Below are positions 1,438-51,726 of a stretch of DNA of 64,000 nt, piece by piece. The position numbers and the translations under genes were made by a program. Under the pieces are notes generated by a model. It was not told where the DNA came from. It saw nothing but the letters and a program-made list of their open reading frames with translations, and made no database searches. Position 1 is the stretch's first letter; every line of letters starts with the position of its first letter. The stretch comes from a phage, in NCBI GenBank assembly GCA_017822615.1, contig GCA_017822615.1_4530.1; one strand, 5' to 3'.

Positions 1438-3216
1438 GTGTCGCACATTATAACTAAATATGGATTTGATGTTGATCTTAGCAAGGAAGGGCATACAGGT
1501 TGTCCGCGCTGCATGAAAAATGGCAAGGATCGCTCTCGTAATAACCTGATGGTTTATGGATTAGATTCTAATGGAGAGCATAAAGGTGCTAAGTGCTTTG
1601 CGTGTGAATACACTATTCCTAGCGTAGAATGGTTACGAGAAAATGGTGAAGTTTTAGAAGAAGAGGAGGAGATTGTGGGTTCGGAATTTAATAAACAGAT
1701 TCATCGTAAAATTGTTCAAGAAACATCAACCAACCCACGTGGTTATCGAGGCATTAAAGAAAAAGTTTCATCTTTCTATGGTGTTCGTTATGAATACCGT
1801 CAGGAAGGGGATCAGATGGTAGTAGAAAGTTGTTTATATCCAACTACTATCGGTAAAGAATTGGTTGGTTTTAAGCGTCGTATTCATCCTAAAGATTTCA
1901 GTAAACCTATTGGTCAAGTAGGTAAAGATGTAGATCTTTTTGGACAAATTCGTTTTGCAGACCGTTCTCATACTGTGGTAATTACAGGTGGTGAACACGA
2001 TGCTCTGGCAGCTTATCAAATGCTGTCTGAAAACTTGGACAACAAATATGAACTTCCAGCAGTAGTTAGTGGCACAACTGGTGAAACCAGTATGTATAAA
2101 CAAGTTCAGGCACAATACCCTTTCTTTGAAAAATTTAAGAAGATTATTGTTTGCATGGATAATGACAAAGCAGGTAATGAGGCATTTGAAAATATTGTTA
2201 AGGTGCTGCCTCGTAACAAAGTCTACCGTATGCAGATGGATCTTAAGGATGCCAATCAGTATCTGGAAGAAGGTCGTGCAAAAGATTTCGTAAAAGCTTT
2301 TTGGAGTGCTCGTCTATACACCCCAGCAGGTGTTTATGCTTCTAATGTCTTGTATGAAGCTGCATTAGAATGCTTGGAATCCAAGATGATTACCTTGCCT
2401 CCTTTTATGCGTGTTGCTGCAAATATGCTGGGTGGTGGTTTAGTAGAGGAAGAGATTACAGTCATCCTGGCAAAGACCAGTATCGGTAAAACTTTGATGG
2501 TGAACGAGATCACCAAACATATTATTGTTGCGCACCCAGAACATACCCTAGGTATTCTGTCCTTGGAAGCAACTTATAAGAAATATTCTCGTAACCTGTT
2601 GTCCTCGTTCCTGCATATTCCTCTACACAGGAAAACACCGGAAGAGAAATTTCAAATCTTGGAAGAGAATAAAGAAAAAATCCTAGATTTTTACGAAAGA
2701 GAAGATGGATCACCACGTTTTTATGTGTGTGATGATCGTGGAGCAGATGTGGAGTCTATCAAAGAAAAAGTTTTGGAGATGATCATCTATTTTGGAGTAA
2801 CAATTCTTGTTATCGACCCTTATTCTGATTTGCTTTCTGGTATGGATGTTCAAGCCCAGGAAGAGTTAGCAACATGGTTGAAGCGCATCATGAAAGAGTA
2901 TGCTATAACTATTATCGTCATCTCACACGTTAAGAAATCGGCTAATGGTGGCAATGAACACTTAACAGAGGACGATGCAATGGGTAGTAGTTTCTTGGCT
3001 AAAGGTGCTGGTATTACCTTGGCTTTGGAACGAGATAAAGCCGCTGAAGACCCTGTAGAACGCAATACGACTCATTGCTTTATCCTAAAAAACCGTGAGT
3101 TCTCGGAAACTGGTCCGGCAGGGCAGTTTTACTATGACATTAGAACTGCAACTCTGCATGACAAAGAGCAGTATTTCAACAATCCTGCTAATTTGCCTAC
3201 GGATAGCAACTACTAA
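1438..3216 (+). CDS. DNA primase/helicase (T7 gp4-like)
   Basis: GTG start after AGGAG; N-terminal Cys4 zinc ribbon (CPRC...CFAC); DnaB-like helicase Walker A AKTSIGKT and Walker B ILVIDPY; 592 aa. Confidence 0.85.
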   Translation: MSHIITKYGFDVDLSKEGHTGCPRCMKNGKDRSRNNLMVYGLDSNGEHKGAKCFACEYTIPSVEWLRENGEVLEEEEEIVGSEFNKQIHRKIVQETSTNPRGYRGIKEKVSSFYGVRYEYRQEGDQMVVESCLYPTTIGKELVGFKRRIHPKDFSKPIGQVGKDVDLFGQIRFADRSHTVVITGGEHDALAAYQMLSENLDNKYELPAVVSGTTGETSMYKQVQAQYPFFEKFKKIIVCMDNDKAGNEAFENIVKVLPRNKVYRMQMDLKDANQYLEEGRAKDFVKAFWSARLYTPAGVYASNVLYEAALECLESKMITLPPFMRVAANMLGGGLVEEEITVILAKTSIGKTLMVNEITKHIIVAHPEHTLGILSLEATYKKYSRNLLSSFLHIPLHRKTPEEKFQILEENKEKILDFYEREDGSPRFYVCDDRGADVESIKEKVLEMIIYFGVTILVIDPYSDLLSGMDVQAQEELATWLKRIMKEYAITIIVISHVKKSANGGNEHLTEDDAMGSSFLAKGAGITLALERDKAAEDPVERNTTHCFILKNREFSETGPAGQFYYDIRTATLHDKEQYFNNPANLPTDSNY

Positions 3217-14571: not shown

Positions 14572-17500
14572 TTAGGTTGTTGGCACATCTACTACTGGCG
14601 TTGGGCGAATAACCGCAGTATTACCTACAGAAACATTACTGGAATCATTAGGTATGGTTTTAATTCTAACTCCAGCACTTGTAGGCGTTACAATTGGATC
14701 TGCAATGTCTATTTTAACTGGGTTAGTCCACGTATCATTATCTTGATAAGGTGCACGAGTAATAACTGTGTCCAAATCTGCTCCACCTACGCCAGCACCA
14801 GGAATACGGATACGTGTCCCTGCTGACAGAGGGTAATGATACAACCAAGAAGCATTTGTTGCTGTCCCGTTAGGAGTCAAGTTCTGTGTCAGGAAGGTAT
14901 CTCCTGCCTGTGTAGCTCGAATACCGAAAGCTGGGATATCTGGAATATATGCCCCACTTGTTGTTACAAGGAAGAACGTATTATCCGCTTTGACTATCAT
15001 ATCACCTTTGTCAAACTCTTTCCCTGTTGGGAAATGCATTCCATCAATGTTTCGACTAGGATTAGGCTCTAAGTAATAAACTTTGCCCGTTGTCCCTACA
15101 ATAGCTCCAATACCACCTGCGATATTGGTATACATATTAGCTTCAACATTACAGTTGACACGATGAATATCCGAGTAACGGCAACGGCTCCACTGTGGAC
15201 GACCAGTAACCATCGTCTTGCCATCTGGGTAACAGTTTACGTTAACCATTTCAAGAACAGATTTTTCTCTACGGAAGAATCCATCATAAAATGTCCCTGG
15301 ACCAGATTCAGGTTGACCAACACAATCGAAGATATTACAGGTGATGTTAGACATTGAAAGCCAAGAAGCTATACCGAACAACTGCAATGCAGCGCAACGA
15401 ATATTTTCAAAGCTAACTCTGTTTTCATAACCTGGCCCAGCGGAAACTCCCGCAAAAACACGCCCAGTTTTGGTGTGAATGTTACGAACAGAATAGTTAA
15501 AGCATGGATTTGAAGGTCTGCCCTGTGCCGGAACTACCGGATTACCCTCTTCGTCCAGAACTGCGTTAGTTCCCCACTCCAAGTAAATCATACGGATATT
15601 ACTTGCAAGTGTGCTACCGTCTGTTTTAGGCTCTCCATAAACACCATCAATCGTAAAGTCTTTACTTCCATACATTACAACTGCGCCAGTTGCCAAACCT
15701 GTCCCAACAGATACGGTTTGATCTGGATCGCCATGAATGTTTTCGATAGAAATATTACGACCAACTTCTACGTGGACAATCTGACGGCAACGTTTTGCAA
15801 AAACGTTACGAATTGTAATGTTCTTACAATATTGATCATCAGGGATTCCGTAACCATATGGTCCTTTACCAGCTACACCGATACCGATACCCCAGTTCGA
15901 CAGAGGAATAGGAGCATTAGTTCCATCGATATTAGACAGGTAAATATTCTCAATCACACAACCATCGTCATAATGTTTATTGATGACGTTCAGTTCTATT
16001 GCATCACCTTGCATGTCCATGAAGGTAAGGTTACGGAAGACACCACGTGTTACTGGTTCCCCTGTTCCTTGTTGAAGGATGCCGTATAACCCATTTTTAA
16101 AAGTACAATTATCAATTTCAAAAGTACCTGATATTGGGTTGCCTTGGAATACCAAGCTACCAACTTGACCCGCGCGAGGAGCACCGTCCCACAAACAATC
16201 GAACATGCGCACAGCACCACCCCAATACATAACACGAGAGTTACGGAAAGTTGTGCCTTCTACTGTAGCATTTTGCACACGATAGTCGCGTTGACCACGG
16301 AACACACCCCCACGCAAAGTGATACCTTGAATATCAAAAGAGCTTGTCGTGAAAGTCATATCGCAACCGTAAGCATCGAGAATCTTGCTTTTCGAAGCTT
16401 TTGCTGCTAACAGTGCCGCTTGGAAAGCTGCTTCTGGTGTGGTATATGCTGTTGTGTTGTTAGCAAATTCTGACAAGTAGACAACATCGAATAAATCGTT
16501 GTATGTTCCACCACGAGGGGTTAACAGTCCTTCTGTATTGGTCAGAACCCATGCATTTGGACCTAATCCACCGCTTGTCTCCAATGTATCGGAGGCCAAA
16601 ATACTTTTTGGTAAACTTCCAGCCCAACGATAACGACCAGCGCCACGTCCAATCGTCTGATTTTTAGCTGTCAGAGTTACATTATTACCAAAGCTTGTAG
16701 GCAAATGAACAAACTGTCCACGCTCAACAGCCAGTGCAGAAAGGTCTACAGATCCTCCAGAATAAGTCATTACTCCAGAAACAGACAAGGATGTTAAAGT
16801 GCCTGTAATGTTAGGAGGTAATGTGTAGGAAGACTGCGCTACCGGATCATACAGAGCTTTAATCCCTGTTAACGATTGACCTGCTGTTGCGTAAGCCACC
16901 TCATCATCTAACAAACCATACTTACGAGCAATAGTTTGCAGAGGGACTTTATCCATGCTTTCTGTTAGTTCTTCCGTTTTTGTTTCTAAACTAACAAGAC
17001 GGTTCTCTAGATTAGGATCTGTATCTGCTGAAGCTACGATTTTGCCAATATAAGCAAAAAGTTTGTTTGGCAGTCCTGTTGCAGGATCGTGTCCCAAAGG
17101 TTCAGATAAGATGATCTTACTATCTTCTATACGGAAAGCTTCCCCCAGAACCTGAATAACACCATTGATCGTAACAATAGCACTATCAAAGATGTAAGGA
17201 GGACTAATTACTGTTTCATAACCAGTTGCACCAGAATATACCCAAGGGGTGACTTCTGTTGCCAATTGTTCTGTCTTCAGTCCCCACAATACCCAGTTGT
17301 TATCTCCTACTGGAGTCCCTTGCATAGGGATTGGGTTAACCAATGTAGCGTTAGGGGCATAGTAATAACCGCTCAATACTCCATTCTGGAAATAACGAAG
17401 TTGGTTAAAAACTGTTTCGTTTGTGCCTTGCGCCCAATCCAATGGGCTTTTAAAGAAAAAGTTGTCAACAAGGGCTTTTCTCAGGGTTGGTATCAACCCT

Positions 17501-20222: not shown

Positions 20223-21710
20223 TTACACTCCATACTCGTAAGAAATGTTATCAAGGTCAAAAGAAGGGACAACATTATAAGCAGGAACTATATTATTCTC
20301 TGTATATTTACTGTCATCCTCAGTATTAAGTTTAACATAAACACGAAGAGAAGTCAAGCGTCCAAAAGCAAGTGCTGCATAAATAACACCTTTGATTTGA
20401 TCGTTCGTTACTGAAGAACCTAATTCAAAGTAAGCTTGCAGGTTTTGTAAAGCTTCTACGATGTTTTGTTTTTCTGTTCCACTTAAAGTTGTTCCGTTGA
20501 CAGTTTGATAAACAAGTTTTACAGAATACATAGCAGAAGCACCAGGAGAGAAGCGAATAATTTCTTGTCCTCCATCTTCTGTTGTAACTGTTATGTTAGT
20601 TGTTCCGTGTGTCAAAGTGTTGATTGGTTTGGTTTTATAAATAACATTTGCAATTTCTTCTGCACTGCCACCATAAACTATAGTCTGGAAAGTCATAGCT
20701 GGAGCGTGTTCTTGATCATGTAACGTAGGGTTATCATAAATCTTCACCTTAGTAACACCATCTGTAAGCAACAGAGCTTTCACAATAGCTGCTCGTGTCC
20801 CTGCGTTAGCTTCATCAACGTTGTCATTGAAACGAGAGCGGAATTCTGCGTCTGTCTCAACATCTCGACCAGGAGAAAATGAATAGAAGTTACCACTGTC
20901 AAGATAACCTGTAAAGGTAGAAGATATCCCTGTAATAGACTCCACACCAACAGGATTGTATCCTTTCTCTGCTGCAACTACCGGAATCTCACTCCATTTG
21001 GTTCCAACCGGAACACTAGCATAAAATTTAATAGGAGTTACCAGCCCCACTGGAGTATCACTGGTTAAAGAAGTAAAACCAATTGATAAGTTACCTGAAT
21101 CAGAAAATACAAGACTACGATCAGCTTCTGTTAAATTTGCCTTGATAAAAGTTTCAAGATCGGTTATAAATGTAGAAGAACCAGGTGCAAGTGTTTTACT
21201 GTTTAGTCCTCCATCGACCGCACTTTGTGCATAAAAAGTAATATTTGGAACACCTGTAGCAGTTGCATTAGCACGAGAGATTTGATAAGCTGCAATCTTA
21301 GCATTCAACATAGTTGGTGTGCTAACATAGTAGTTCATATCACTATCAGAGTTGAAATAAATATCTGTGCCTAGCTCATAAGTCCAAGCTGCTTTGTTAT
21401 TACTCTTAACATATGCATAACCTGTACTTGCTGCTGCACCTGCTCGATAGAAACCGCGTTTAGAAAAGATTTCATCAAGATAAATACCTTCTGCACCATC
21501 CAGTGTTTGAGTATTATAAACACCTTGCATACCTTCCCACAATGTGTAATCTGTGTATGCAATTATTCTAAACAGTTGTCCGATCACAGTATCTTCCGAA
21601 GTGGCTGCATCTGCACCAAATGTGTTTTTTACTGCTGTCATGTAGTTGTTTAAAACATCGTCAAAAGTCGGGATTACAAATCCCGCATCTGTCAAACCAT
21701 ATTCGTCCAT
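20223..21710 (-). CDS. baseplate J-like protein
   Basis: 495 aa; size and position upstream of gpI-like and fiber genes. Confidence 0.45.
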   Translation of the reverse strand: MDEYGLTDAGFVIPTFDDVLNNYMTAVKNTFGADAATSEDTVIGQLFRIIAYTDYTLWEGMQGVYNTQTLDGAEGIYLDEIFSKRGFYRAGAAASTGYAYVKSNNKAAWTYELGTDIYFNSDSDMNYYVSTPTMLNAKIAAYQISRANATATGVPNITFYAQSAVDGGLNSKTLAPGSSTFITDLETFIKANLTEADRSLVFSDSGNLSIGFTSLTSDTPVGLVTPIKFYASVPVGTKWSEIPVVAAEKGYNPVGVESITGISSTFTGYLDSGNFYSFSPGRDVETDAEFRSRFNDNVDEANAGTRAAIVKALLLTDGVTKVKIYDNPTLHDQEHAPAMTFQTIVYGGSAEEIANVIYKTKPINTLTHGTTNITVTTEDGGQEIIRFSPGASAMYSVKLVYQTVNGTTLSGTEKQNIVEALQNLQAYFELGSSVTNDQIKGVIYAALAFGRLTSLRVYVKLNTEDDSKYTENNIVPAYNVVPSFDLDNISYEYGV

Positions 21711-38010: not shown

Positions 38011-38670
38011 TTATTCGGTAGGGTTGTTAAATAATGATCCATTTTGATTAACTGACGAGTATTCGCCTGGAACCAAAGTAATTGCATAAACCCTGTTTAG
38101 AATTAAATCTAAAGGGATAGGATCATTGTAACTATCTCTGAATGAACGGATGTGCATGTTGATTGCTTCTATTGGTGTAGTAGCAATATCTTCAATACTC
38201 ATGCGAGTGTTGAACGTCATAACCATACGCGCTCTTAATTCAGTCTTATCTCCGTCTACAATTGTATTGGCTTGAGCTATATTAGAGGCTCCTAAAAAAC
38301 CAAGACCTTTAGAATAGAGATGTTTGTATTTTAATTCCTCTGCACCACGGAGAGCAGCCAGAACATAGCTCATCAAAGTGGTAGGTCTTCCACGATAGGC
38401 TACAAGTTCAATCTCGTAGGTATTATCCATCTCGTAGGAATACATATCATTTTGAATAGAGCTTCGGTAAGACCAACCTCCAGAATCGCTGGAAGTGATA
38501 ATACGTAGTGCTAGGTAAGGAGTATCCGGTTTAATGAATGGCTTATCCATAACATAGACTGGCAACCCCACTAATTCTTGAAGGAAGCCACCTATATTTA
38601 AGTAGATGGCATTTTCGTATGCTTCTATTTGTTGGTAAATATTAGCCAAAGTTTCCTCCTTCTGTTCCAT
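38011..38670 (-). CDS. neck/tail completion protein
   Basis: 219 aa between head and tail modules. Confidence 0.45.
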   Translation of the reverse strand: MEQKEETLANIYQQIEAYENAIYLNIGGFLQELVGLPVYVMDKPFIKPDTPYLALRIITSSDSGGWSYRSSIQNDMYSYEMDNTYEIELVAYRGRPTTLMSYVLAALRGAEELKYKHLYSKGLGFLGASNIAQANTIVDGDKTELRARMVMTFNTRMSIEDIATTPIEAINMHIRSFRDSYNDPIPLDLILNRVYAITLVPGEYSSVNQNGSLFNNPTE

Positions 38671-39091
38671 AAGACCAGGAGTTGTTTTGATCGTCTAATA
38701 TTGCAACACAGTGATGATGGACTAAGAAAGATGTTCTGGTCCAATCTTTAAGGGAATAAACAGAATACCATTTACCATCTATCAATATCTGATCTGATAA
38801 CTGTTCTGTTCCTTGTTGTAACCCCTTCATTTCTGTTTTAGTCCAGAAACTATATTGAGCCTTAGATCTGTAACCTTCAGGTAGTGCATTCAGTATTTTA
38901 CCAGATATCGGTTGTAAGCTTGCAGCTTCAATAGTAAATGGTTCATATTCTACACTACTTTCTAAGTTAGCAATAACTGAACCAACGGCCTCTTTGTAGA
39001 CTCGTCTACGACCTTGGTATTCAGTTAGATCAAGGAGAGTAAATTGATCTAGTAACACTTGTATCTCCTTTTTAGTATACATCAAAAACAA
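38642..39091 (-). CDS. head-tail joining protein
   Basis: 149-aa ORF overlapping its neighbour. Confidence 0.45.
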   Translation of the reverse strand: MFLMYTKKEIQVLLDQFTLLDLTEYQGRRRVYKEAVGSVIANLESSVEYEPFTIEAASLQPISGKILNALPEGYRSKAQYSFWTKTEMKGLQQGTEQLSDQILIDGKWYSVYSLKDWTRTSFLVHHHCVAILDDQNNSWSYGTEGGNFG

Positions 39092-39103
39092 AGTTTATGC
39101 AAG

Positions 39104-39592
39104 TTATTTTTTAGACTTGCTTTTTGTGATTTTTGTTTCGATTGCATTTATCATGTGTGCCGTATCTATTAAGATATGATTAGAATAGTTGCCTTTATCT
39201 TGTCGTATCTTAATTGTCACAGGAGATAAAGGACGATAACGTTGCATTGCAATCGCTTGAGCTATTCCTTCTCTAGAGGCTCTCGCTATAGGCTCAAAAA
39301 CAGCTAACCCGACATTATTCATTAGGTAATTTGCAAACACCTGCTTCATCTTTTTAGCGATATCGTTCTGTGAGATAACAGCACCATCTGTTATAAAAGG
39401 GCGAGCAGGTATGTTATTTGTTTCATTACCATATTGTTGAATAGCTGCTATTGCAGGAATAGTGAGATCTGATTCAGGATGCCTTTTGTTTGTTAAAAAA
39501 CCAGCTTCGATTTGAACTTGTTCAAGGTCCATCATCTTTTTGATAATGGTTTCCCAATCTGTATCGTCACCTGGTAAGATCTCACTTTCCAT
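39104..39592 (-). CDS. head-tail joining protein
   Basis: 162-aa ORF. Confidence 0.45.
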   Translation of the reverse strand: MESEILPGDDTDWETIIKKMMDLEQVQIEAGFLTNKRHPESDLTIPAIAAIQQYGNETNNIPARPFITDGAVISQNDIAKKMKQVFANYLMNNVGLAVFEPIARASREGIAQAIAMQRYRPLSPVTIKIRQDKGNYSNHILIDTAHMINAIETKITKSKSKK

Positions 39593-40140
39593 TATTTGTC
39601 CCTACGATAAAAAGAAACAGGTCCGTAATTTCGCAAATAATTAACGTTGCGTGTATTACGATCAACACTTGCAACATTACCAAGACCATTTACAGAGTTA
39701 GGATCGCTGTTTACTCGATCAATCTCACGAGCATCCACACCGCCAATAAGAACTTTGCTGGTTGCTCCTCGTCCTGCCGTGCACCCAGGGATCACCATAA
39801 GACCATTTAAATAGTTATGATAGATATCTTCCCACGGAGATTTATAAGTGACTTGACCGTTGTTAAATTTAACTTCAACTTCGACTTCACCCATCTTTTC
39901 TCTGCGGGACATAGCTCCTCCTGTTTGAGTACTGTTGTTAAGAACATCGTTGTTCCATAAATACTCTAAAACAGAAATCAAGCTGTTCCACAATACTGCA
40001 CACTTATCCTTATCTTCATTCCCTATAATATCAATCCAAGTTTGGATGATCTGAATCAGCATCGCATCTGGCAATACTTCTTGAGAAGGGTTATAAACAA
40101 GAATTCGGATCAGTGGTGCCAACTCTACCGCATTCAGCAT
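39592..40140 (-). CDS. head completion / connector protein
   Basis: 182-aa ORF. Confidence 0.45.
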   Translation of the reverse strand: MLNAVELAPLIRILVYNPSQEVLPDAMLIQIIQTWIDIIGNEDKDKCAVLWNSLISVLEYLWNNDVLNNSTQTGGAMSRREKMGEVEVEVKFNNGQVTYKSPWEDIYHNYLNGLMVIPGCTAGRGATSKVLIGGVDAREIDRVNSDPNSVNGLGNVASVDRNTRNVNYLRNYGPVSFYRRDK

Positions 40141-40149
40141 AAGCCCACC

Positions 40150-40548
40150 TTATTTTTTACGAAGGGAACGTTTTTTAGCTGGAGTGTCTACCGCTTCTAC
40201 TTTTAAAACTTCTTCTTTGATTTTTACAGGTGCATAGTCTTCGTAACTTACAAGATAGTAACCCATGTGTTCTTCACTTGCAAAAGGATGCACAAGAATA
40301 CCTGTTTCTTCTCTCAAACGCGTGAGGAAGTGAATGAAGTTTCCACCTAATGCAATACGACCATCTTTCAGATAGAAAGACATTGGTGGCGCAGATACTA
40401 ATGTTTTATCAGCATCAATCAGTGGTGAAAGCGATTCGAAATCACGAATCATTTCGTGATAACTAAAGTAACGTTTCAATTCTGGGTTTGACATATCAAT
40501 CTCCTCGTTGTAAACTCTTATTGTAAACAGAAAAGGCTCGCCCATCAC
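40150..40548 (-). CDS. head-associated protein
   Basis: 132 aa; start codon lies inside a hairpin just after the capsid gene. Confidence 0.5.
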   Translation of the reverse strand: MMGEPFLFTIRVYNEEIDMSNPELKRYFSYHEMIRDFESLSPLIDADKTLVSAPPMSFYLKDGRIALGGNFIHFLTRLREETGILVHPFASEEHMGYYLVSYEDYAPVKIKEEVLKVEAVDTPAKKRSLRKK

Positions 40549-40578
40549 GGACGAGCCTCTAATCTTAACAGAGTTCTA

Positions 40579-41580
40579 TTAAGCCGTAGTCAGTTTAACT
40601 ACCAGTTCTGGACGGGTGTTAACTGCGAGCAGCGAGAATTCAGACTGAAGCTGAATAGTGCGGTGCTGGCTGATCATGAAGGTATACAGTTCACGAGCCT
40701 GGGTGTTAGCCAGTTCTGGAGTATCCGCAGGAGCGTAGTGCGCCTGGAACATACCTTCGATACCCATAGGCAGAACATATGCTTCACCAGCAGGGATGTT
40801 ACCGTGGATATCTTCAATGTAAGTTACACCGTTCCATTCGAACACCTGAACATCCATGTTACCGCTAAGGCGGTCACGCAGAAGGTTAGGAGTTCCCTGG
40901 AAATACTGATACGCCTGGCGAACAAATGGAGAGTTAACCAGAGATGCGAAAAATTCACGAGAACACAGAGCTACGATACGGGTAGCGGTAGAGCCATCTT
41001 GTTTAGTATCGATGATGTAAGCACGAGCTTCTTGTTCGATAGTGGCTGCTGGAGAAACAGTGGTAGAAGCAAAGTCTACAGCAACAGATTTCTGGGTAGC
41101 ACCCCATTCGGTATACCAGTTGTATGCAGAGTTAGCTGCACCACCTACGCCGTTATAGGCACGACCCATAACTGCTTCTGCAAAGATTTTTTCTTTGGTT
41201 TTTGCTACGTCACGCAGAATCTGGGACATATAGCGGTTAACAACTTCAGCGTCTGTGCGCAGAGAGTCGTTGATTCCTGCCATTGCAAAGCTACGGAAAG
41301 ATTGAATATCTTGAGCTTTGATGTTTTTATCCAGAGGGAAGAACGGAATGCGGAACGCTTTCAGTTCTGGATTTTTCATGGTCAGGAAGTTACGCTCACC
41401 ACCACGCTCACGAGCGGAGATCAGAGCATCTTCAGCTTTTTCTTTACCGATTTCAATAGCGGTAGTTGAATGATAGTCAACACTGAACAGATTCAGGCTG
41501 GCAATCAGTGTATCAGGGGAATCCTGAAGTTCGATCATAGGGCTGAAATCTACAACCTGATCTAAAATTACTGCTGGCAT
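40579..41580 (-). CDS. major capsid protein (lambda gpE-like)
   Basis: 333 aa; C-terminal NTQARELYTFM resembles lambda E NTQARGLRTYG; follows decoration and scaffold genes. Confidence 0.8.
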   Translation of the reverse strand: MPAVILDQVVDFSPMIELQDSPDTLIASLNLFSVDYHSTTAIEIGKEKAEDALISARERGGERNFLTMKNPELKAFRIPFFPLDKNIKAQDIQSFRSFAMAGINDSLRTDAEVVNRYMSQILRDVAKTKEKIFAEAVMGRAYNGVGGAANSAYNWYTEWGATQKSVAVDFASTTVSPAATIEQEARAYIIDTKQDGSTATRIVALCSREFFASLVNSPFVRQAYQYFQGTPNLLRDRLSGNMDVQVFEWNGVTYIEDIHGNIPAGEAYVLPMGIEGMFQAHYAPADTPELANTQARELYTFMISQHRTIQLQSEFSLLAVNTRPELVVKLTTA

Positions 41581-41601
41581 TATATTAATCTCCTATTAAA
41601 A

Positions 41602-42000
41602 TTAAGAAGTGAAAACGACTTTTTCGGTCAGTTTCAGATCATGTGTTTCCAGTGCTGCTACGCCAGCGTCATCTACCAGGGAGCCATCTTTGTAGTATAC
41701 TGCAAAGCGGTTCAGAGTAAGATCACGTACGCCAACAACTGCGGTGAAAGTGTCACCTACTGCTACATCGTCAATACCGAACAGAGCATCAGTCCAAATC
41801 AGAACTTTAGCAGCATCGGCAGCTTCAGCTTTAGCAGCTTCAGTGTTGTCAGCTTTCAGGATAGAACCAATTTTCATGGTTGCTGTTTTAACCAGGTTAA
41901 CTTCACGTACACAGTGTCCAAGGTCAGAGCTAAACACTCCACCCAGAACCAGGTGTCCGAATTCCTGGCGAGAGTTAGATAAAGTAATTCCTTTAGCCAT
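41602..42000 (-). CDS. head decoration protein (gpD-like)
   Basis: 132 aa; Ala/Val/Thr-rich; between scaffold and capsid genes. Confidence 0.55.
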   Translation of the reverse strand: MAKGITLSNSRQEFGHLVLGGVFSSDLGHCVREVNLVKTATMKIGSILKADNTEAAKAEAADAAKVLIWTDALFGIDDVAVGDTFTAVVGVRDLTLNRFAVYYKDGSLVDDAGVAALETHDLKLTEKVVFTS

Positions 42001-48450: not shown

Positions 48451-48747
48451 TTAGATTACGATCTTTTTAGGAACGTCATCTGTATTCTGCACGGCAGGGG
48501 TTTCTTCTTCCATAGCTTCATAATGTTCTTCTAACCATTCTTCTACTTGCTCTTTAATAGCTTTAGCTGCTTGGAAGCGGAGAGGTTTTGCTGCATCCTT
48601 ATCATTAACAAGTTCAACAATATACCGCATAGCTTCTAAATAATGCTCTGCAAATAATTCTTTTACACTTGCTTGCGCCGCATCCATTGCGTAAATCTGT
48701 TGCATTTCGGCTGTTGGTCTTCCACGACCACGTTTTAGTTTAGGCAT
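48451..48747 (-). CDS. DNA-binding protein, possible terminase small subunit
   Basis: 98 aa; N-terminal KRGRGRP basic motif; RBS AGGAGG; own promoter. Confidence 0.4.
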   Translation of the reverse strand: MPKLKRGRGRPTAEMQQIYAMDAAQASVKELFAEHYLEAMRYIVELVNDKDAAKPLRFQAAKAIKEQVEEWLEEHYEAMEEETPAVQNTDDVPKKIVI

Positions 48748-48768
48748 AATAAAATCCTCCTAAACTTT

Positions 48769-48797
48769 ATCTTAACATATAAAAAATAATAAGTCAA
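48769..48797 (-). promoter_or_regulatory. minus-strand promoter TTGACT-N17-TAAGAT
   Basis: Upstream of the 48747 start. Confidence 0.4.
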
Positions 48798-48811
48798 GTT
48801 TTATTCAATAG

Positions 48812-48839
48812 ATAGCAAAAAGCCTCCAATAAGGAGGCT
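48812..48839 (-). terminator. rho-independent terminator ending the tRNA transcription unit
   Basis: agcctcc-aataa-ggaggct hairpin with T-run on the minus strand. Confidence 0.55.
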
Positions 48840-48952
48840 AATAAATACTGTTAATTTGAAATGCTTTATTATAATTGTGCGTTAAGGAGTCGCACCCCTC
48901 CCTCTTAGAAGGAACCAGGCAAGGTCTTCAAAGATACCGCTGGCGCGATATT

Positions 48953-49031
48953 TGGAGGCGGGAATCGGATTCGAACCGATGATCTCCAGCATATGAAACT
49001 GGCGAGGACGACCAGACTCCTCTATCCCGCT
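48953..49031 (-). tRNA. tRNA-Met(CAT): tRNA, anticodon CAT (Met or lysidine-Ile), CCA encoded
   Basis: Manual cloverleaf: T-arm atcgg/attcgaa/ccgat, anticodon loop TTCATAT, 6/7 acceptor pairs. Confidence 0.6.
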
Positions 49032-49037
49032 ATTATG

Positions 49038-49107
49038 TATCCCGTGCTGGATTCGAACCAGCATCACAATAAGCTGTGGAACTCTTATCCTGTAAGTCTA
49101 ACGGGAA
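49038..49107 (-). tRNA. tRNA-like gene, anticodon unresolved
   Basis: Canonical T-arm gctgg/attcgaa/ccagc and 6/7 acceptor stem, but no regular anticodon arm could be folded. Confidence 0.35.
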
Positions 49108-49112
49108 ACTGG

Positions 49113-49183
49113 TTGTTTCGACAAGAATCGAACTTGTATCTCACGATTATCAGTCGTGGGTTCTACCATTGAACTACGAAACA
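49113..49183 (-). tRNA. tRNA-Ile(GAT): tRNA-Ile (GAT)
   Basis: Perfect 7-bp acceptor stem, D-stem GTTC/GAAC, anticodon loop CTGATAA, T-loop TTCGATT. Confidence 0.75.
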
Positions 49184-49192
49184 TTTAATTGG

Positions 49193-49266
49193 TCGGAATT
49201 GCAGGATTCGAACCTGCGACAATACGCTCCCAAAGCGTACACTCTACCAAACTGAGCTAAATTCCG
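49193..49266 (-). tRNA. tRNA-Pro(TGG): tRNA-Pro (TGG)
   Basis: Perfect acceptor stem, anticodon stem TACGC/GCGTA, loop TTTGGGA. Confidence 0.75.
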
Positions 49267-49363
49267 TCATAACATTCTAAAGGTACACCGCAAAAGAAAG
49301 TGTTCGGCGGCTCCTCGTTTTTTAACTTCACACTTGAGGTAGTGACTCACCTTTGTTGTATGG

Positions 49364-49436
49364 CTGGTCTGTCTGGATTTGAACCAAACCTACGACAGTC
49401 AAAGTGTCGTGTGCTACCTGACTACACTACAAACCA
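49364..49436 (-). tRNA. tRNA-Gln(TTG): tRNA-Gln (TTG)
   Basis: Anticodon stem CGACA/TGTCG, loop CTTTGAC, T-loop TTCAAAT. Confidence 0.7.
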
Positions 49437-49534
49437 ATAAATCATTTAATGAAGGGCAACCAGAAGAAGTGTGAGAGAAGGAGAAAACCATGAGTAAAAG
49501 AGAAAGTTTTCTGGCAACCCTTTATTAAATAATT

Positions 49535-49611
49535 TGGAGCGTTATATCGGATTCGAACCGATGCCACCGACTTGGAAGGACGGGATGCTGAACCGCTAAC
49601 ACTAATAACGC
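49535..49611 (-). tRNA. tRNA-Gly(TCC): tRNA-Gly (TCC), CCA encoded
   Basis: Perfect acceptor stem, anticodon loop CTTCCAA with one U-U mismatch in the stem. Confidence 0.65.
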
Positions 49612-49619
49612 TTTGTATA

Positions 49620-49654
49620 TATTTACTATACTACATTTTACTATTGGTTGTCAA
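49620..49654 (-). promoter_or_regulatory. tRNA promoter P1 (ctaTTGACAA, TG-extended -10)
   Basis: ttgtcaatag on plus strand at 49647-49656; TATAGT-like -10; reads into tRNA-Gly. Confidence 0.5.
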
Positions 49655-49930
49655 TAGTTTTATTGAGTGGGACAGTGACGAGTATCCCATTGGGTGACTA
49701 GCCCTACGTTCGGTAAGCTAACTTAAAATAATACAAAACAAAAGTCAAATATTATTCTTCGTTGCTGTCGATGGGAGAGCCGCTTCTTCTTTTGCCCCAT
49801 CCAACCCTACTCCGGTCAAGTTTCAGGTGACTCTTTTTGTGATCAACACAATACTAAGAACACTGTCTTTCGAGCAGACCTTGTGCACAGGATACGACGA
49901 TCAATCACAGTGCTCTTAATGTTGTGTTGG

Positions 49931-50002
49931 TGCTCCCACACTGAATCGAACAGAGATCCACGGATTACAAAACCGTTGTAATAGCCATTATACTATAGGA
50001 GC
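49931..50002 (-). tRNA. tRNA-Thr(TGT): tRNA-Thr (TGT)
   Basis: Acceptor stem with one G-U pair, anticodon loop TTTGTAA, T-loop TTCGATT. Confidence 0.6.
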
Positions 50003-50008
50003 AATGCT

Positions 50009-50086
50009 GGGACTCGGCAGGATTCGATACCTGCAATTCCAGAAGCCTATTGGCGACTGGGGGGTTTACCTTAACTCTACAAGTCC
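50009..50086 (-). tRNA. tRNA-like gene, non-canonical
   Basis: Acceptor stem (6 bp plus G-U) and T-stem GCAGG/CCTGC with an 8-nt T-loop; anticodon arm could not be placed. Confidence 0.3.
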
Positions 50087-50093
50087 ATAATTC

Positions 50094-50179
50094 TGGCGAT
50101 GAGTATAGGATTCGAACCTATATTGTTCTTTCGAACACGGATTAACAGTCCGCCGCTTAAACCATTCAGCCAACTCATC
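50094..50179 (-). tRNA. tRNA-Asn(GTT): type II (long variable arm) tRNA with Asn anticodon GTT, CCA encoded
   Basis: Perfect 7-bp acceptor, 3-bp D-stem, anticodon arm GCGGA-CTGTTAA-TCCGT, 15-nt variable arm GTTCGAAAGAACAAT, discriminator G73. Confidence 0.55.
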
Positions 50180-50185
50180 TTAATT

Positions 50186-50273
50186 TGGTGGTGAGTGATG
50201 GAGTCGAACCACCCGAATCGCAATGATAACAGATTTACAGTCTGCCCCGCTACCCCTACGGAATTAACTCACC
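50186..50273 (-). tRNA. tRNA-Tyr(GTA): tRNA-Tyr (GTA), type II, CCA encoded
   Basis: Perfect acceptor stem, anticodon arm GCAGA-CTGTAAA-TCTGT, long variable arm. Confidence 0.65.
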
Positions 50274-50403
50274 TAAATACTAATATTTAAATTCTTTTTA
50301 AAATAGCCAGTGTTCACACCACTAACTATGAGGTATCGGTAAAGTGGTTACCGCCACTTGCCGAAGATTTACTCTGCTAAAGTAAGCTACATTAAAAAGA
50401 ACT

Positions 50404-50489
50404 TGGCGGTAGATGTAGGACTCGAACCTACACGCCGTTTCCGACTACAGTTTAGCAAACTGTCGTGGCTACCATTTCACCAATCTACC
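50404..50489 (-). tRNA. tRNA-Ser(GCT): tRNA-Ser (GCT), type II, CCA encoded
   Basis: Perfect acceptor stem, anticodon arm ACAGT-TTGCTAA-ACTGT, 15-nt variable arm, G73. Confidence 0.7.
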
Positions 50490-50494
50490 TAATC

Positions 50495-50585
50495 TGGCGG
50501 AAGGAGGGAGAGTCGAACTCCCAAGGCTCTTTCAAGCTCGGCGGTTTTCAAGACCGTTTTCGTCGCCACATCGATTTGCCCTTCC
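50495..50585 (-). tRNA. tRNA-Ser(TGA): tRNA-Ser (TGA), type II, CCA encoded
   Basis: Anticodon loop CTTGAAA, long variable arm, T-loop TTCGACT, G73. Confidence 0.6.
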
Positions 50586-50593
50586 ATACTTAT

Positions 50594-50623
50594 AATCTAA
50601 CATAAAATAATGTTTGTTGTCAA
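50594..50623 (-). promoter_or_regulatory. tRNA promoter P2 (ctaTTGACAA, aTGtTAGATT)
   Basis: ttgtcaatag at 50616-50625; reads into tRNA-Ser(TGA). Confidence 0.5.
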
Positions 50624-50819
50624 TAGTTTTTTAAAACATTTTACCATGAATGGTGACTCCACCAACCCCCGTTCTCCACGAACGGTGCTCTTCGAGCATT
50701 TATGTCTTCTAATATAACCGTGGCCTTTGTTTATAATGTCTGACATACTTGCCTCATTCTCTGCCACCATGATCAGTAGTGGGTTCAAATCACTTGAGCT
50801 AATTCATGTTAAAATGTTC

Positions 50820-50894
50820 TGGTGTCTTTACAAGGAATCGAACCTTGACTAAGAGTTTAGAAGACTCCTGTGCTATCCATTACACCATAAAGAC
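50820..50894 (-). tRNA. tRNA-Arg(TCT): tRNA-Arg (TCT), CCA encoded
   Basis: Perfect acceptor stem, D-stem GTGT/GCAC, anticodon loop CTTCTAA. Confidence 0.7.
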
Positions 50895-50896
50895 TT

Positions 50897-50971
50897 TGGT
50901 GGCCCTGGCTGGTTTCGATCCAGCTACCTATCGGTTATGAGCCGACAGCTCTCCCATTGAGCTACAGGGCC
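50897..50971 (-). tRNA. tRNA-Met(CAT): tRNA-Met (CAT), possibly initiator-like, CCA encoded
   Basis: Perfect acceptor stem, anticodon loop CTCATAA with three G/C pairs closing the stem; unusual T-loop ATCGAAA. Confidence 0.65.
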
Positions 50972-51180
50972 ATAAATGTGGTAACAGAGACGCTGACGAT
51001 TGTAGAGAACCGCTACATTCTCTAAGACCAAGCCCAACTTTCAGCGTAAAAGTTCTTGAGCCGAGACTATTCCTTTTCCTCTTTGGTAGCTAACCTCTGA
51101 AGAAGTAGTCTCTAACACTACCGCAGTGCAAGCCCCTCTTAACAAAAGTCAACGACCCTGTTACCACACTTGATGAACGT

Positions 51181-51210
51181 ATCCTAACATATGAAGGATA
51201 CGTTTGTCAA
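51181..51210 (-). promoter_or_regulatory. tRNA promoter P3 (ctaTTGACAA, aTGtTAGGAT)
   Basis: ttgtcaatag at 51203-51212; reads toward the tRNA-Met/Arg end of the cluster. Confidence 0.5.
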
Positions 51211-51217
51211 TAGTTAT

Positions 51218-51466
51218 TTAAGCATATTCTGCTACTTCTTCACTATCTTTCTTTTCCAGAAGAGCAACAACCAAAGCTTCTGCGTTAAAAGTGTTAATTT
51301 CAAGATCCATTTCTCGCATCAGAGCCAAGAAATCAATAACTTTAACATCTTTAGTTATTACAATAGAAGTTGTACCATTGTTTTCAGATGTGTATTTTTC
51401 TGGATGGAAAAGAAAAACTGCATTGCCGTTACCATCTTCAAACACGTGTTTTTCTAATAGAGACAT
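51218..51466 (-). CDS. hypothetical protein (83 aa, start refined)
   Basis: Internal ATG at 51466 preceded by AGGAGG is a better start than the upstream ATG used in the track. Confidence 0.5.
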   Translation of the reverse strand: MSLLEKHVFEDGNGNAVFLFHPEKYTSENNGTTSIVITKDVKVIDFLALMREMDLEINTFNAEALVVALLEKKDSEEVAEYA

Positions 51467-51474
51467 TGTTCCTC

Positions 51475-51726
51475 CTAATCTGTTAGTTGTTCGTCCTCTA
51501 CCAAGTTTGACACGAGAACGTCTGTTATACATTGATGCTGATAAACCCTTTCGGGACTATCATCAAAAGCCAAACCTGTGCAAATAGAACAGAGGTCTGA
51601 TTCCTTGATGACTCCATTTTTATCACGTCTGGAGTGGTTTGTCAAATGCCTATTACAAGCACGGCACCTAAAATAAAAGCTATTTTGCATATATCCTTCG
51701 AACCCCAAATGGGGAGTGATCGGCAT
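51475..51726 (-). CDS. hypothetical Cys-rich protein
   Basis: 83 aa with CxxC...CxxC; poor SD spacing; overlaps a plus-strand track ORF. Confidence 0.35.
   Translation of the reverse strand: MPITPHLGFEGYMQNSFYFRCRACNRHLTNHSRRDKNGVIKESDLCSICTGLAFDDSPERVYQHQCITDVLVSNLVEDEQLTD

Follow-up and report, generated by a model that had tools for sequence, protein, structure and literature searches.

The DNA analysed here, a 64,000-nucleotide stretch (the window), comes from a phAPEC8-like E. coli myophage (Phapecoctavirus). On its minus strand, between positions 50971 and 48953, lie 12 canonical tRNA genes and two tRNA-shaped elements (TL1 and TL2), separated in five places by long spacers (S1 to S5). 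A sixth structured element (S0) lies upstream of the first tRNA and a trailer (S6) follows the last. Three internal sigma-70 promoters, identified by consensus, divide the cluster, which ends in one intrinsic terminator. The coordinates of all features are collected in Table 1.

tRNA genes and spacer elements

To test whether the predicted tRNAs are genuine, we searched the cluster with ARAGORN and with the Rfam covariance models. ARAGORN found 10 tRNAs, and the Rfam tRNA model (RF00005) added tRNA-Tyr(GTA) at 50273-50189, giving 11 genes that score 39-72 bits against a cut-off of 29. The twelfth, tRNA-Ser(TGA) at 50585-50499, scored only below threshold, against the tRNA-Sec model of the same clan (35.7 bits), but is called by tRNAscan-SE in the 98%-identical phage ASO2A. 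The cluster is already annotated in sister phages. TL1, TL2 and the spacers gave no tRNA-clan hit even at E<=10, and no non-tRNA Rfam family, including GOLLD, ROOL, ribozymes and type I antitoxin sRNAs, came near its threshold in 48500-51500.

An earlier note, made from the sequence alone, had described this region as a fourteen-gene tRNA cluster with long unassigned spacers, and that observation is confirmed. Its strand and its 12 anticodons are exactly right, and the spacers lie at the positions it gave and hold no further tRNA, although the count is better stated as 12 tRNAs plus two tRNA-like RNAs, and CCA is encoded directly after all 12 genes rather than several. The note's reading of the spacers as small RNAs, processing sites or decayed tRNAs is borne out only in part. 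Small RNAs are supported, since the spacers are conserved and show compensatory base changes, and most are closed by a terminal clamp helix. Decayed tRNAs are not supported for the spacers and remain possible only for TL1, while processing is at most a side role of the clamp helices. The note could not have seen the plasmid homologies of S2 and S5 described below, nor the internal promoters.

Table 1. Features of the tRNA cluster, in order of transcription. Coordinates are those of the window.
Feature	Coordinates	Strand	Description	Observations
P1	51181..51210	-	Promoter, TTGACA-18-TAGGAT, inside the extended motif CTATTGACA	CTATTGACA occurs 5 times in the window against 0.65 expected, always on the minus strand; 3 of the 5 are in this cluster
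S0	50972..51175	-	Leader RNA of about 200 nt, multibranched, closed by a 22-bp helix that ends 4 nt before the first tRNA	MFE -76.8 kcal/mol, z -5.9; 9 of 70 pairs compensatory against 80%-identical relatives; found only in Phapecoctavirus
tRNA (CAT)	50897..50971	-	CCA encoded	ARAGORN, Rfam; called Ile2 by tRNAscan in ASO2A
tRNA-Arg (TCT)	50820..50894	-	CCA encoded	ARAGORN, Rfam
S1	50631..50822	-	Structured RNA of about 190 nt with a clamp helix; includes a hairpin whose invariant 7-nt loop CUGAUCA copies the anticodon loop of tRNA-Ile(GAU) (repeat family D7)	14 of 51 pairs compensatory across 8 sequences, including Seunavirus phages at 70% identity, where it also lies between tRNAs; covariance-model hit of 206.7 bits; no plasmid or E. 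coli homologue found
P2	50594..50623	-	Promoter, TTGACA-18-TAGATT	
tRNA-Ser (TGA)	50496..50585	-	Atypical D arm; CCA encoded	Sub-threshold; tRNAscan-SE call in ASO2A
tRNA-Ser (GCT)	50404..50489	-	CCA encoded	ARAGORN, Rfam
S2	50284..50406	-	115-nt four-helix RNA: P1 clamp and hairpins P2, P3 and P4; homologous to the strand antisense to the 3' end of the IncI-plasmid abi gene	Covariance-model hit of 142.5 bits
S2 core	50325..50386	-	P2, linker and P3; complementary to abi mRNA from the stop codon back to about codon 95	96.8% identical over 62 nt to ColIb-P9-type plasmids, with a 55-nt perfect run
tRNA-Tyr (GTA)	50186..50273	-	CCA encoded	Rfam
tRNA-Asn (GTT)	50094..50179	-	CCA encoded	ARAGORN, Rfam
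TL2	50009..50086	-	tRNA-shaped RNA, anticodon arm replaced by a closed tetraloop hairpin; no CCA; homologue of T5 RNA3	Acceptor and T stems covary between Phapecoctavirus and phi92-like phages
tRNA-Thr (TGT)	49928..50002	-	CCA encoded	ARAGORN, Rfam
S3a	49850..49927	-	78-nt hairpin RNA with an invariant core	z -3.1; homologues in E. coli prophages, a Salmonella phage-plasmid and Klebsiella siphophages; 3 pairs compensatory
S3b	49660..49849	-	Two conserved sequence blocks separated by a replaceable middle segment	
P3	49625..49654	-	Promoter, TTGACA-18-TATAGT	
tRNA-Gly (TCC)	49535..49611	-	CCA encoded	ARAGORN, Rfam
S4	49437..49534	-	Long hairpin with a 45-nt CU-rich loop	z -7.3; 36-nt core 92% conserved in phi92-like phages
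tRNA-Gln (TTG)	49361..49436	-	CCA encoded	ARAGORN, Rfam
S5	49267..49360	-	One ToxI-like repeat unit (49354-49318) followed by a 3' hairpin	
tRNA-Pro (TGG)	49190..49266	-	CCA encoded	ARAGORN, Rfam
tRNA-Ile (GAT)	49110..49183	-	CCA encoded	ARAGORN, Rfam
TL1	49038..49107	-	tRNA-like element with good acceptor and T arms, a 10-nt 'anticodon' loop, no D stem and no CCA; may be a decayed tRNA	No covariation; changes fall in the pseudo-anticodon arm
tRNA-Met (CAT)	48953..49031	-	CCA encoded	ARAGORN, Rfam
S6	48860..48952	-	3' trailer with three short hairpins	87-88% conserved in phi92-like phages and seen in Klebsiella phages; z -1.7
Terminator	48821..48839	-	Intrinsic terminator of the operon	

Homology of S2 and S5 to plasmid loci

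We aligned 28 distinct S2 sequences to test the four-helix model. In this alignment 99.5% of cells are paired and 15 of 39 pairs are compensatory, which none of 500 shuffles reached, while slid controls gave at most 53% paired. G-U pairs place the structure on the tRNA strand. S2 occurs in 178 phage records from Phapecoctavirus, Justusliebigvirus, Vequintavirus, Tequintavirus and Certrevirus, at least four virulent lineages, and in every locus whose context was examined it lies directly 5' of a tRNA.

The S2 core also matches 152 E. coli plasmids and 460 PLSDB plasmids, 418 of them conjugative and including ColIb-P9 (NC_002122), and the covariance model scores the plasmid copies at 55-62 bits (E about 1e-12). 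On the plasmids the sequence lies opposite the last ~37 codons and the stop codon of a 114-aa ORF with a hydrophobic core, which NCBI and UniRef name 'abortive infection protein'; in one such plasmid sequence (L029) S2 matches 2482-2581 on the plus strand and the abi CDS is at 2502-2846 on the minus strand. This ORF matches no Pfam, NCBIfam or PADLOC family, and the literature describes the abi gene products as unidentified (PMC10644984). The phage strand has no abi-like ORF, only 17 codons preceded by stops.

Four alleles of the hypervariable P2-loop/linker/P3 module are each shared exactly between phages and plasmids, in perfect runs of 46-71 nt (71 nt for phAPEC8), whereas non-matching phage-plasmid pairs usually share only 10-20 nt (up to about 36). 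Sister phages of one genus carry different alleles. Predicted duplexes are about -139 kcal/mol for matched alleles and -96 to -127 kcal/mol for mismatched ones.

The plasmid sequence is preceded by TTGACA-17-TAGC(G/T)T, invariant in 12 variants although its spacer varies, but this is only a consensus match with a weak -10 that the promoter scan did not call, and no terminator is evident. The plasmid copies by themselves keep P2, P3 and P4, with compensatory changes and G-U pairs on that strand, although the region also encodes protein and part of its conservation is due to coding. A literature search found no published antisense transcript for abi, and Rfam searches of the plasmid abi and ToxI regions returned no hit near threshold.

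S5 nucleotides 7-43 are 94.7% identical, over 38 nt, to the first unit of a plasmid array (L125) that lies between a promoter and a terminator directly upstream of a ToxN/AbiQ toxin gene (Pfam ToxN_toxin 1.3e-40; PADLOC AbiQ 2e-59). The array consists of 2.9 x 38-nt repeats, which covary internally (UCAC/GUGA versus UCGC/GCGA), and S5 aligns over a full unit. By sequence it is therefore a pseudo-ToxI, but it holds a single unit followed by an unrelated hairpin, and no tandem repeat family covers the cluster. The same element occurs in T4-like phages after rIII and in 73 phage records, including Vibrio phages.

Comparison with known phage and plasmid RNAs

The closest precedent for S5 is the pseudo-ToxI of Pectobacterium phage PhiTE (Blower et al. 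2012, PMC3475682), a non-coding RNA that resembles a type III (ToxIN) antitoxin repeat, is carried by an rV5-like myophage at low repeat number and evolves by exchange with the plasmid locus. S5 belongs to a different ToxI sequence family, with a 38-nt unit on E. coli, Serratia, Pantoea and Shewanella plasmids, and sits inside a tRNA operon between tRNA-Gln and tRNA-Pro. In PhiTE neither 1.5 units nor a single pseudo-ToxI repeat was protective. S2 goes beyond this precedent, as it would mimic a cis-antisense RNA rather than a protein-binding repeat. In type I toxin-antitoxin modules such as bsrG/SR4 and txpA/RatA, a convergent antisense antitoxin overlaps the 3' end of the toxin gene. The plasmid abi locus resembles these in having a small hydrophobic protein gene with a predicted structured RNA on the opposite strand overlapping its 3' end, and ColIb abortive infection depolarises the membrane (PMC10644984), but at 114 aa the protein is larger than typical type I toxins, and both the antisense transcript and the toxicity of this ORF are inferred. 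To our knowledge no phage-borne copy of a type I antitoxin has been described.

TL2 and T5 RNA3 share 54 identical positions of 73, including GTAGAGTTAAG(G)TAAAC and ATCGAAT, and both lie directly 3' of tRNA-Asn. RNA3 is one of the stable RNAs of unknown function interleaved with tRNA genes in T5 (RNAI, RNAIII, RNAIV, RNA1, RNA2, RNA2H, RNA3, RNAX) and T4 (rnaC and rnaD), several of which are tRNA-like; T4 rnaC also combines acceptor and T arms with a non-tRNA body. Apart from TL2 and RNA3, only T-loop words are shared between these RNAs and the elements of the window. The S1 and S2 covariance models found nothing significant in the T5 or T4 loci, and none of the T5 or T4 RNAs matches plasmids. 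In the tRNA-rich region of T5-family phages, described as an anti-defence island (Azam et al., bioRxiv 10.1101/2023.03.15.532788), tRNA-Tyr itself cancels retron Ec78, and in T5-like phages S2 lies directly upstream of that tRNA-Tyr. The effectors described there are a protein (Rad), ORFs and a functional tRNA, not antitoxin-like non-coding RNAs. GOLLD and ROOL ornate RNAs (PMC12286853) are also structured, of unknown function and often next to tRNAs in phages, but are 500-800 nt long, compared with 80-200 nt for the spacer RNAs here.

A proposed role in counter-defence

We propose, with a probability of roughly 0.6, that the locus is an early-transcribed tRNA operon that doubles as an expression and processing scaffold for non-coding RNAs directed against host defences. 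Each spacer RNA is flanked by tRNAs, so RNase P and the tRNA 3'-end machinery should cut it out, and the terminal clamp helix of most spacers would protect the released RNA. At least two of these RNAs would be mimics of the RNA partners of plasmid-borne abortive-infection modules. Supplied in excess from the phage, S2 would pair with abi mRNA over 46-71 perfectly matched nucleotides, or stand in for the plasmid's own putative antisense antitoxin, and either way would prevent production of the 114-aa membrane protein presumed to kill the infected cell. S5 carries one unit of the ToxI-like repeat presumed to neutralise a ToxN/AbiQ endoribonuclease, and would be either a weak inhibitor or a seed that can expand, as in PhiTE. 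Our analysis establishes the tRNAs, the promoters (by consensus), the conservation and covariation of the spacer RNAs, the homologies, the allele matching and the strand. Expression and excision of the RNAs by tRNA processing, their stability, pairing with abi mRNA or binding to and inhibition of ToxN, the role of the 114-codon ORF as the abi toxin, and relief of abortive infection are inferred from sequence alone. S0, S1, S3, S4, S6, TL1 and TL2 are proposed to be further RNAs of this sort, but nothing ties them to a target; the other spacers, like the T5 and T4 stable RNAs, have no detectable plasmid or E. coli counterpart, so the general idea of a decoy array rests on 2 of about 9 elements. 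Consistent with the proposal for S2, T5, the classic victim of ColIb abortive infection (PMC10644984), has a different sequence in the slot before tRNA-Tyr and no S2 in its tRNA region (20-60 kb of its genome was searched).

A less likely alternative is that the spacers are passive insulators or processing hairpins (RNase III or RNase E sites) that help tRNA maturation, and that the similarities of S2 and S5 to plasmids are recombination debris picked up in plasmid-bearing hosts. tRNA clusters are recombination hot spots: a homing endonuclease gene sits right after S2 in JohannJBalmer, ZCKP1 has a ~700-bp insert, and T4 has segB and T5 its HNH genes in the same regions. Long clamp helices such as the 22 bp of S0 look like RNase III substrates, and S5 has only one repeat unit. 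Debris, however, would not be kept with compensatory changes across at least four phage lineages, re-acquired in four alleles that each match a plasmid allele exactly, or given a covarying phage-specific P1 clamp. The ToxI-like unit moreover recurs in 73 phage records, and processing hairpins need no invariant loop sequences such as those of S1.

Allele matching and complementarity to abi mRNA would fit either direction of an arms race, and S2 could instead be the signal that the plasmid senses, pairing with the 3' end of abi mRNA to stabilise or activate it while plasmids track phage alleles. We consider this very unlikely, because T5 triggers ColIb abortive infection without S2 in its tRNA region, the literature names the pre-early protein A2 as the trigger (PMC10644984), a dispensable RNA that provokes suicide should be lost quickly rather than spread to 178 phage records, and the plasmid carries its own copy with a conserved promoter-like element. 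Least likely is that the spacers are decayed tRNA genes or short protein-coding genes. TL1 does look like a degenerating tRNA, and some records annotate small ORFs in S0, S1, S3 and TL1, but no spacer gives a tRNA-clan hit, homologues differ by single-nucleotide indels and paired substitutions, which is not a codon-like pattern, and ORFs on the transcribed strand are at most 63 codons, start at TTG or GTG and are not conserved.

A bolder reading, which we regard as possible but doubtful, is that ColIb/IncI abi, whose mechanism has been unresolved since the 1970s, is a type I-like toxin-antitoxin module controlled by an allele-specific antisense RNA, which virulent coliphages defeat by carrying the matching allele in their tRNA operons and re-sampling alleles from plasmids by recombination. 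In this view the clamp-closed RNAs between phage tRNA genes (S0, S1, S3, S4 and S6 here, and the stable RNAs of T5 and T4) would form a general arsenal of RNA decoys or antitoxins, each aimed at a different host defence and released by the tRNA-processing enzymes.

The tRNA cluster itself is ordinary, and what matters is what sits between the tRNAs. The proposal offers a concrete, testable function for the stable non-tRNA species of phage tRNA clusters, annotated as of unknown function for decades. It also points to an RNA component at the ColIb abi locus, a classic defence system, and makes the long-open question of its mechanism directly testable. It would extend RNA-based antitoxin mimicry from one laboratory example, the PhiTE pseudo-ToxI, to a widespread natural strategy with many alleles, including a cis-antisense (type I-like) antitoxin. 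Because IncI plasmids are common in poultry and clinical E. coli and Salmonella, and these phages are candidates for phage therapy, the S2 allele could predict host range.

Organization of the tRNA operon and its structured spacers

To test if the cluster contains genuine tRNA genes, we searched the region with ARAGORN and with the Rfam covariance models. The region is 96-98% identical to phAPEC8-like E. coli myophages (Phapecoctavirus, Stephanstirmvirinae), and all of its features lie on the minus strand. ARAGORN finds 10 tRNA genes, and the Rfam tRNA model adds tRNA-Tyr(GTA). A twelfth gene, tRNA-Ser(TGA), scores only below threshold on the tRNA-Sec model of the same clan, but is called by tRNAscan-SE in phage ASO2A, the annotation of which lists the same 12 anticodons that were folded by hand in the earlier note. 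This gene has an atypical D arm and starts within a few nucleotides of the predicted start site of promoter P2; although ARAGORN misses it here, the program finds its counterparts in phi92-like and rV5-like phages. All 12 genes are followed directly by CCA. The two further genes that the note called tRNA-like, TL1 and TL2, have acceptor and T arms but lack CCA and are rejected by the covariance models. The observation made in the earlier note is thus confirmed, and as a tRNA cluster it is already known. Its interpretation, that the spacers may hold small RNAs, processing sites or decayed tRNAs, is partly supported, in that the spacers are structured, conserved RNAs.

Coordinates of the features described in the text. 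Coordinates on plasmid, prophage and other phage sequences are those of the records or contigs named.
Sequence	Feature	Coordinates	Strand
Window	tRNA genes	50971-48953	-
Window	sigma-70 promoter P1	51210-51181	-
Window	S0, non-tRNA stretch	51175-50972	-
Window	S1, spacer	50819-50626	-
Window	hairpin inside S1	50780-50760	-
Window	GAGTCAC in S1	50653-50659	-
Window	sigma-70 promoter P2	50623-50594	-
Window	tRNA-Ser(TGA)	50585-50499	-
Window	S2, spacer	50403-50274	-
Window	S2 core	50386-50325	-
Window	TL2, tRNA-like element	50086-50009	-
Window	S3, spacer	49927-49612	-
Window	GAGTCAC in S3b	49827-49833	-
Window	sigma-70 promoter P3	49654-49625	-
Window	S4, spacer	49534-49437	-
Window	S5, spacer	49360-49267	-
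Window	GAGTCAC in S5	49342-49348	-
Window	TL1, tRNA-like element	49107-49038	-
Window	S6, non-tRNA stretch	48952-48860	-
Window	intrinsic terminator	48839-48821	-
T5 NC_005859 (L124)	slot upstream of tRNA-Tyr, and RNAX	15429-15530 and 20849-21567	
Phage JohannJBalmer (L027)	putative homing endonuclease gene after S2	1640-2020	
Klebsiella phage ZCKP1 MH252123	cluster with insert of about 700 bp	38414-41723	
IncI plasmid (L029)	ORF of about 35 codons upstream of abi	about 2846-2950	-
IncI plasmid (L029)	nearest promoter-like site for abi	3194-3166	
E. coli prophage (L030)	S3a-like hairpin	3001-3083	
Salmonella phage-plasmid (L126)	S3a-like hairpin	2501-2584	

Three strong sigma-70 promoters, identified by sequence, sit on the tRNA strand, and one intrinsic terminator follows the cluster. 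All three promoters carry the extended motif CTATTGACA, which occurs five times in 64 kb against 0.65 expected, always on this strand. The tRNA cluster is a hot spot for mobile insertions: a putative homing endonuclease gene is inserted directly after S2 in phage JohannJBalmer, and in Klebsiella phage ZCKP1 an insert of about 700 bp carrying an XRE/antitoxin-HTH gene sits inside the otherwise 98%-identical cluster. Records labeled as Campylobacter, Acinetobacter or Pseudomonas phages (MG065650, OP562383, OR584014 and others) carry this cluster or its S2 element at E. coli-phage-like identity (76-97%), so that their host labels look doubtful.

The spacers S0, S1, S2, S3a (a hairpin within S3) and S4 each fold with a terminal helix of 10-22 bp that joins their 5' and 3' ends, and their folding energies are well below those of shuffled sequence (z -5.9, -3.6, -3.3, -3.1 and -7.3, respectively). 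S0 keeps 70 predicted pairs against 80%-identical relatives, and 9 of those pairs are compensatory. S1 has homologs at about 70% identity inside the tRNA clusters of Seunavirus phages (PVP-SE1, GAP31, 4MG); 14 of its 51 pairs are compensatory, and its loop sequences are invariant. One hairpin of S1, CCACUA-CUGAUCA-UGGUGG, has an invariant 7-nt loop that copies the anticodon loop of the cluster's own tRNA-Ile(GAU), except for C at position 37, and its stem covaries in the Seunavirus homologs (CACAGA/UCUGUG). The loop UGAUCA is also self-complementary and contains a GATC site. The hairpin could be an anticodon-arm decoy or a kissing-dimer site. S3a has homologs in E. coli prophages, a Salmonella phage-plasmid and Klebsiella siphophages; the S3a-like hairpins of one prophage and of the phage-plasmid sit in long unannotated intergenic regions, one about 330 nt upstream of a lone Gp49/HigB-like toxin gene and the other upstream of dnaB. 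The S4 hairpin has a 45-nt CU-rich loop (including CUCCUUCUCUC), the reverse complement of which would read a perfect Shine-Dalgarno sequence plus a 12-codon ORF; the G-U pairs favor the tRNA strand, so S4 may be antisense to a ribosome-binding region of some target. Its 36-nt core is 92% conserved in phi92-like phages.

Substitutions among spacer homologs include single-base indels and paired changes, and ORFs in the spacers are short and unconserved, so that protein coding and missed tRNAs can be set aside. Rfam scans at the gathering threshold and at E<=10 of the cluster, of the plasmid abi region and of the ToxI array gave nothing except tRNAs. Retron ncRNA, ribozyme and tmRNA-like readings of S0 and S1, which were considered by eye only, found no support. 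The heptamer GAGTCAC occurs in S5, S3b (the other part of S3) and S1, and was considered as a shared motif; these are 3 of its 5 occurrences in the 64-kb window, but the window total is not above chance and the observation was post hoc. Only in S5 is it explained, as the start of the ToxI-like unit.

TL2 keeps its acceptor and T stems through compensatory changes between Phapecoctavirus and phi92-like phages, while its anticodon arm is a closed hairpin that differs between the two groups. It is homologous to T5 RNA3, annotated as a putative tRNA-like RNA, and both follow tRNA-Asn. We found no other homology, between the spacers and T4 rnaC/rnaD or T5 RNAI, RNAIII, RNAIV, RNA1, RNA2, RNA2H and RNAX. 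TL1 shows no covariation, and its changes fall in its pseudo-anticodon arm, so it may be a decaying tRNA.

Homology of S2 to the IncI abi locus

S2 consists of a P1 clamp helix and three hairpins (P2, P3 and P4), and is found in 178 phage records from Phapecoctavirus, Justusliebigvirus (phi92-like), Vequintavirus (rV5-like), some Tequintavirus (T5-like) and a Certrevirus. In every locus whose context was examined it lies directly upstream of a tRNA, either Tyr or Lys. On 28 distinct sequences 99.5% of cells are paired, 15 of 39 pairs show compensatory change, no shuffle out of 500 reaches this, and slid controls give at most 53% paired. Although this alignment is fitted to the covariance model, so that the pair counts lean towards the model, an independent MAFFT/RNAalifold run gave the same helices, with 7 compensatory pairs. 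Several invariant or common G-U pairs place the structure on the tRNA strand. Pattern scans of IMG/VR for S1 and S2 returned only 3-4 contigs each, and a scan of a collection of genome contigs with a 17-base pattern gave mostly chance hits; of its three enterobacterial hits only one, on a Scandinavium plasmid-like contig, scored with the S2 model.

The S2 core is 96.8% identical over 62 nt to 152 E. coli plasmids and matches 460 PLSDB plasmids, 418 of which are conjugative, and which include ColIb-P9 (NC_002122) and IncI-gamma/K1 replicons. On the plasmids the sequence lies on the strand opposite a 114-codon ORF, covering its stop codon and roughly its last 37 codons; in NC_002122 the stop codon is near position 13.39 kb. 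This ORF has a hydrophobic core, keeps its length in all complete variants, and is named "abortive infection protein" by NCBI and UniRef, although it belongs to no Pfam, NCBIfam or PADLOC family. Just upstream of the S2-like sequence, inside the abi 3' UTR, is a promoter-like element, TTGACA-17-TAGC(G/T)T, that is invariant in 12 plasmid variants although its spacer varies; as an antisense promoter it is weak by consensus and was not called by the promoter scanner. The plasmid copies by themselves keep P2, P3 and P4, with compensatory changes and G-U pairs on that strand, in a region of overlap that also codes for protein. The phage does not encode the Abi C-terminus; the corresponding abi-like frame opposite S2 is 17 codons bounded by stops. 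Upstream of abi on an IncI plasmid, an ORF of about 35 codons with its own Shine-Dalgarno sequence overlaps the abi start codon out of frame, which recalls mok/hok translational coupling. The nearest promoter-like site for abi is about 320 nt upstream, and a DUF4238 gene lies next door.

The P2-loop/linker/P3 module exists in several alleles, four of which are shared exactly between phages and plasmids. Allele A is carried by the window, rV5-like JEP1, W70, phAPEC8 (a 71-nt perfect run) and two metagenomic phages, and matches ColIb-type plasmids. Allele B is shared by the phage and plasmid sequences designated L011 and L098 (56 nt), allele C by phage L116 and plasmid L102 (58 nt), and allele D by phi92 and four plasmid contigs (46 nt). 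Non-matching phage-plasmid pairs usually share runs of only 10-20 nt (up to about 36), and closely related phi92-like phages carry alleles A, B, C or D. Predicted S2:abi-mRNA duplexes are about -139 kcal/mol for matched pairs and -96 to -127 for mismatched ones. Repeated, allele-specific sharing is what one expects if the phage RNA must pair with the plasmid RNA or exactly imitate it, and is hard to reconcile with neutral debris.

ColIb plasmids abort T5 and BF23 infection through loss of membrane potential, and the abi/ibf products and mechanism are described as unidentified (PMC10644984). In T5 itself the slot before tRNA-Tyr holds a different 100-nt sequence with its own clamp helix, as if it were a cassette slot, and no significant S2 was found in its 20-60 kb tRNA region, the only part of T5 that was examined. 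T5 RNAX contains two copies of AGTCACCTTGAC(T/A)TAAACTGGAA and a weak resemblance to S2 P2/P3 that is not significant (nhmmer E=1.2). Literature searches found no description of an abi antisense RNA or of S2.

Homology of S5 to a ToxIN-type locus

Nucleotides 7-43 of S5 are 94.7% identical to the first unit of a 2.9 x 38-nt tandem array on E. coli IncF, Serratia, Pantoea and Shewanella plasmids. That array lies between a TTGACT-17-TATAAT promoter and a terminator, directly upstream of a gene that is Pfam ToxN_toxin (1.3e-40) and PADLOC AbiQ (2e-59), which is the standard layout of a type III toxin-antitoxin locus. CP057296 carries a ToxN of this kind with its native array. The repeat units covary internally, and S5 aligns over one full unit and then continues into an unrelated hairpin. 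The same element follows rIII in some T4-like phages, and ToxI-like units of this family occur in 73 phage records, including 25 Vibrio phages, CR3, PcCB7V and a T5-like phage. The precedent is pseudo-ToxI of the rV5-like phage PhiTE, in which 1.5 units did not protect and escape mutants either expanded the array or recombined with the plasmid (PMC3475682). S5 may therefore be a weak inhibitor or a seed for expansion.

Interpretation and comparison with known systems

We considered three alternatives to a counter-defense role, namely that the spacers are passive processing structures accompanied by recombination debris, that S2 is the signal sensed by Abi, and that the spacers are decayed tRNAs or small ORFs. 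The first is the most serious, mainly because 7 of about 9 elements have no identified target, although the allele matching of S2 is hard to reconcile with neutral debris. To test if the decoy idea extends to other RNAs of this kind, we searched PLSDB with the T5 and T4 stable RNAs and with S1, and found no match, and we searched 5,426 E. coli genomes with S0, S1, S3b, S4, S6, TL1 and TL2, again finding none. The generalization is therefore unsupported.

The tRNA genes are members of a known family. S5 has the sequence homology expected of a pseudo-ToxI but lacks the repetition. S2 would work like an antitoxin mimic, but of a cis-antisense (type I-like) RNA, for which we know of no phage precedent. 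The closest analogs in placement are the T5 and T4 stable RNAs, for which no function has been assigned, and the T5 "anti-defense island" among its tRNAs.

Our analysis, which is entirely computational, demonstrates the anatomy of the locus, the conservation of its RNAs, their homologies, the strand and the allele matching, whereas every step of the mechanism that we propose, from transcription and release to pairing, ToxN binding and the block of Abi, is inferred. In this model early promoters would drive high transcription, and RNase P and the tRNA 3'-end enzymes, which must act on the flanking tRNAs, would release the spacer RNAs. The clamp helices, which are absent from the plasmid version of S2, would protect the ends of the released RNAs. 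S5 would bind ToxN, and S2 would either pair with the 3' part of abi mRNA or replace the plasmid's own putative, labile antisense RNA after host shut-off, blocking production of Abi.
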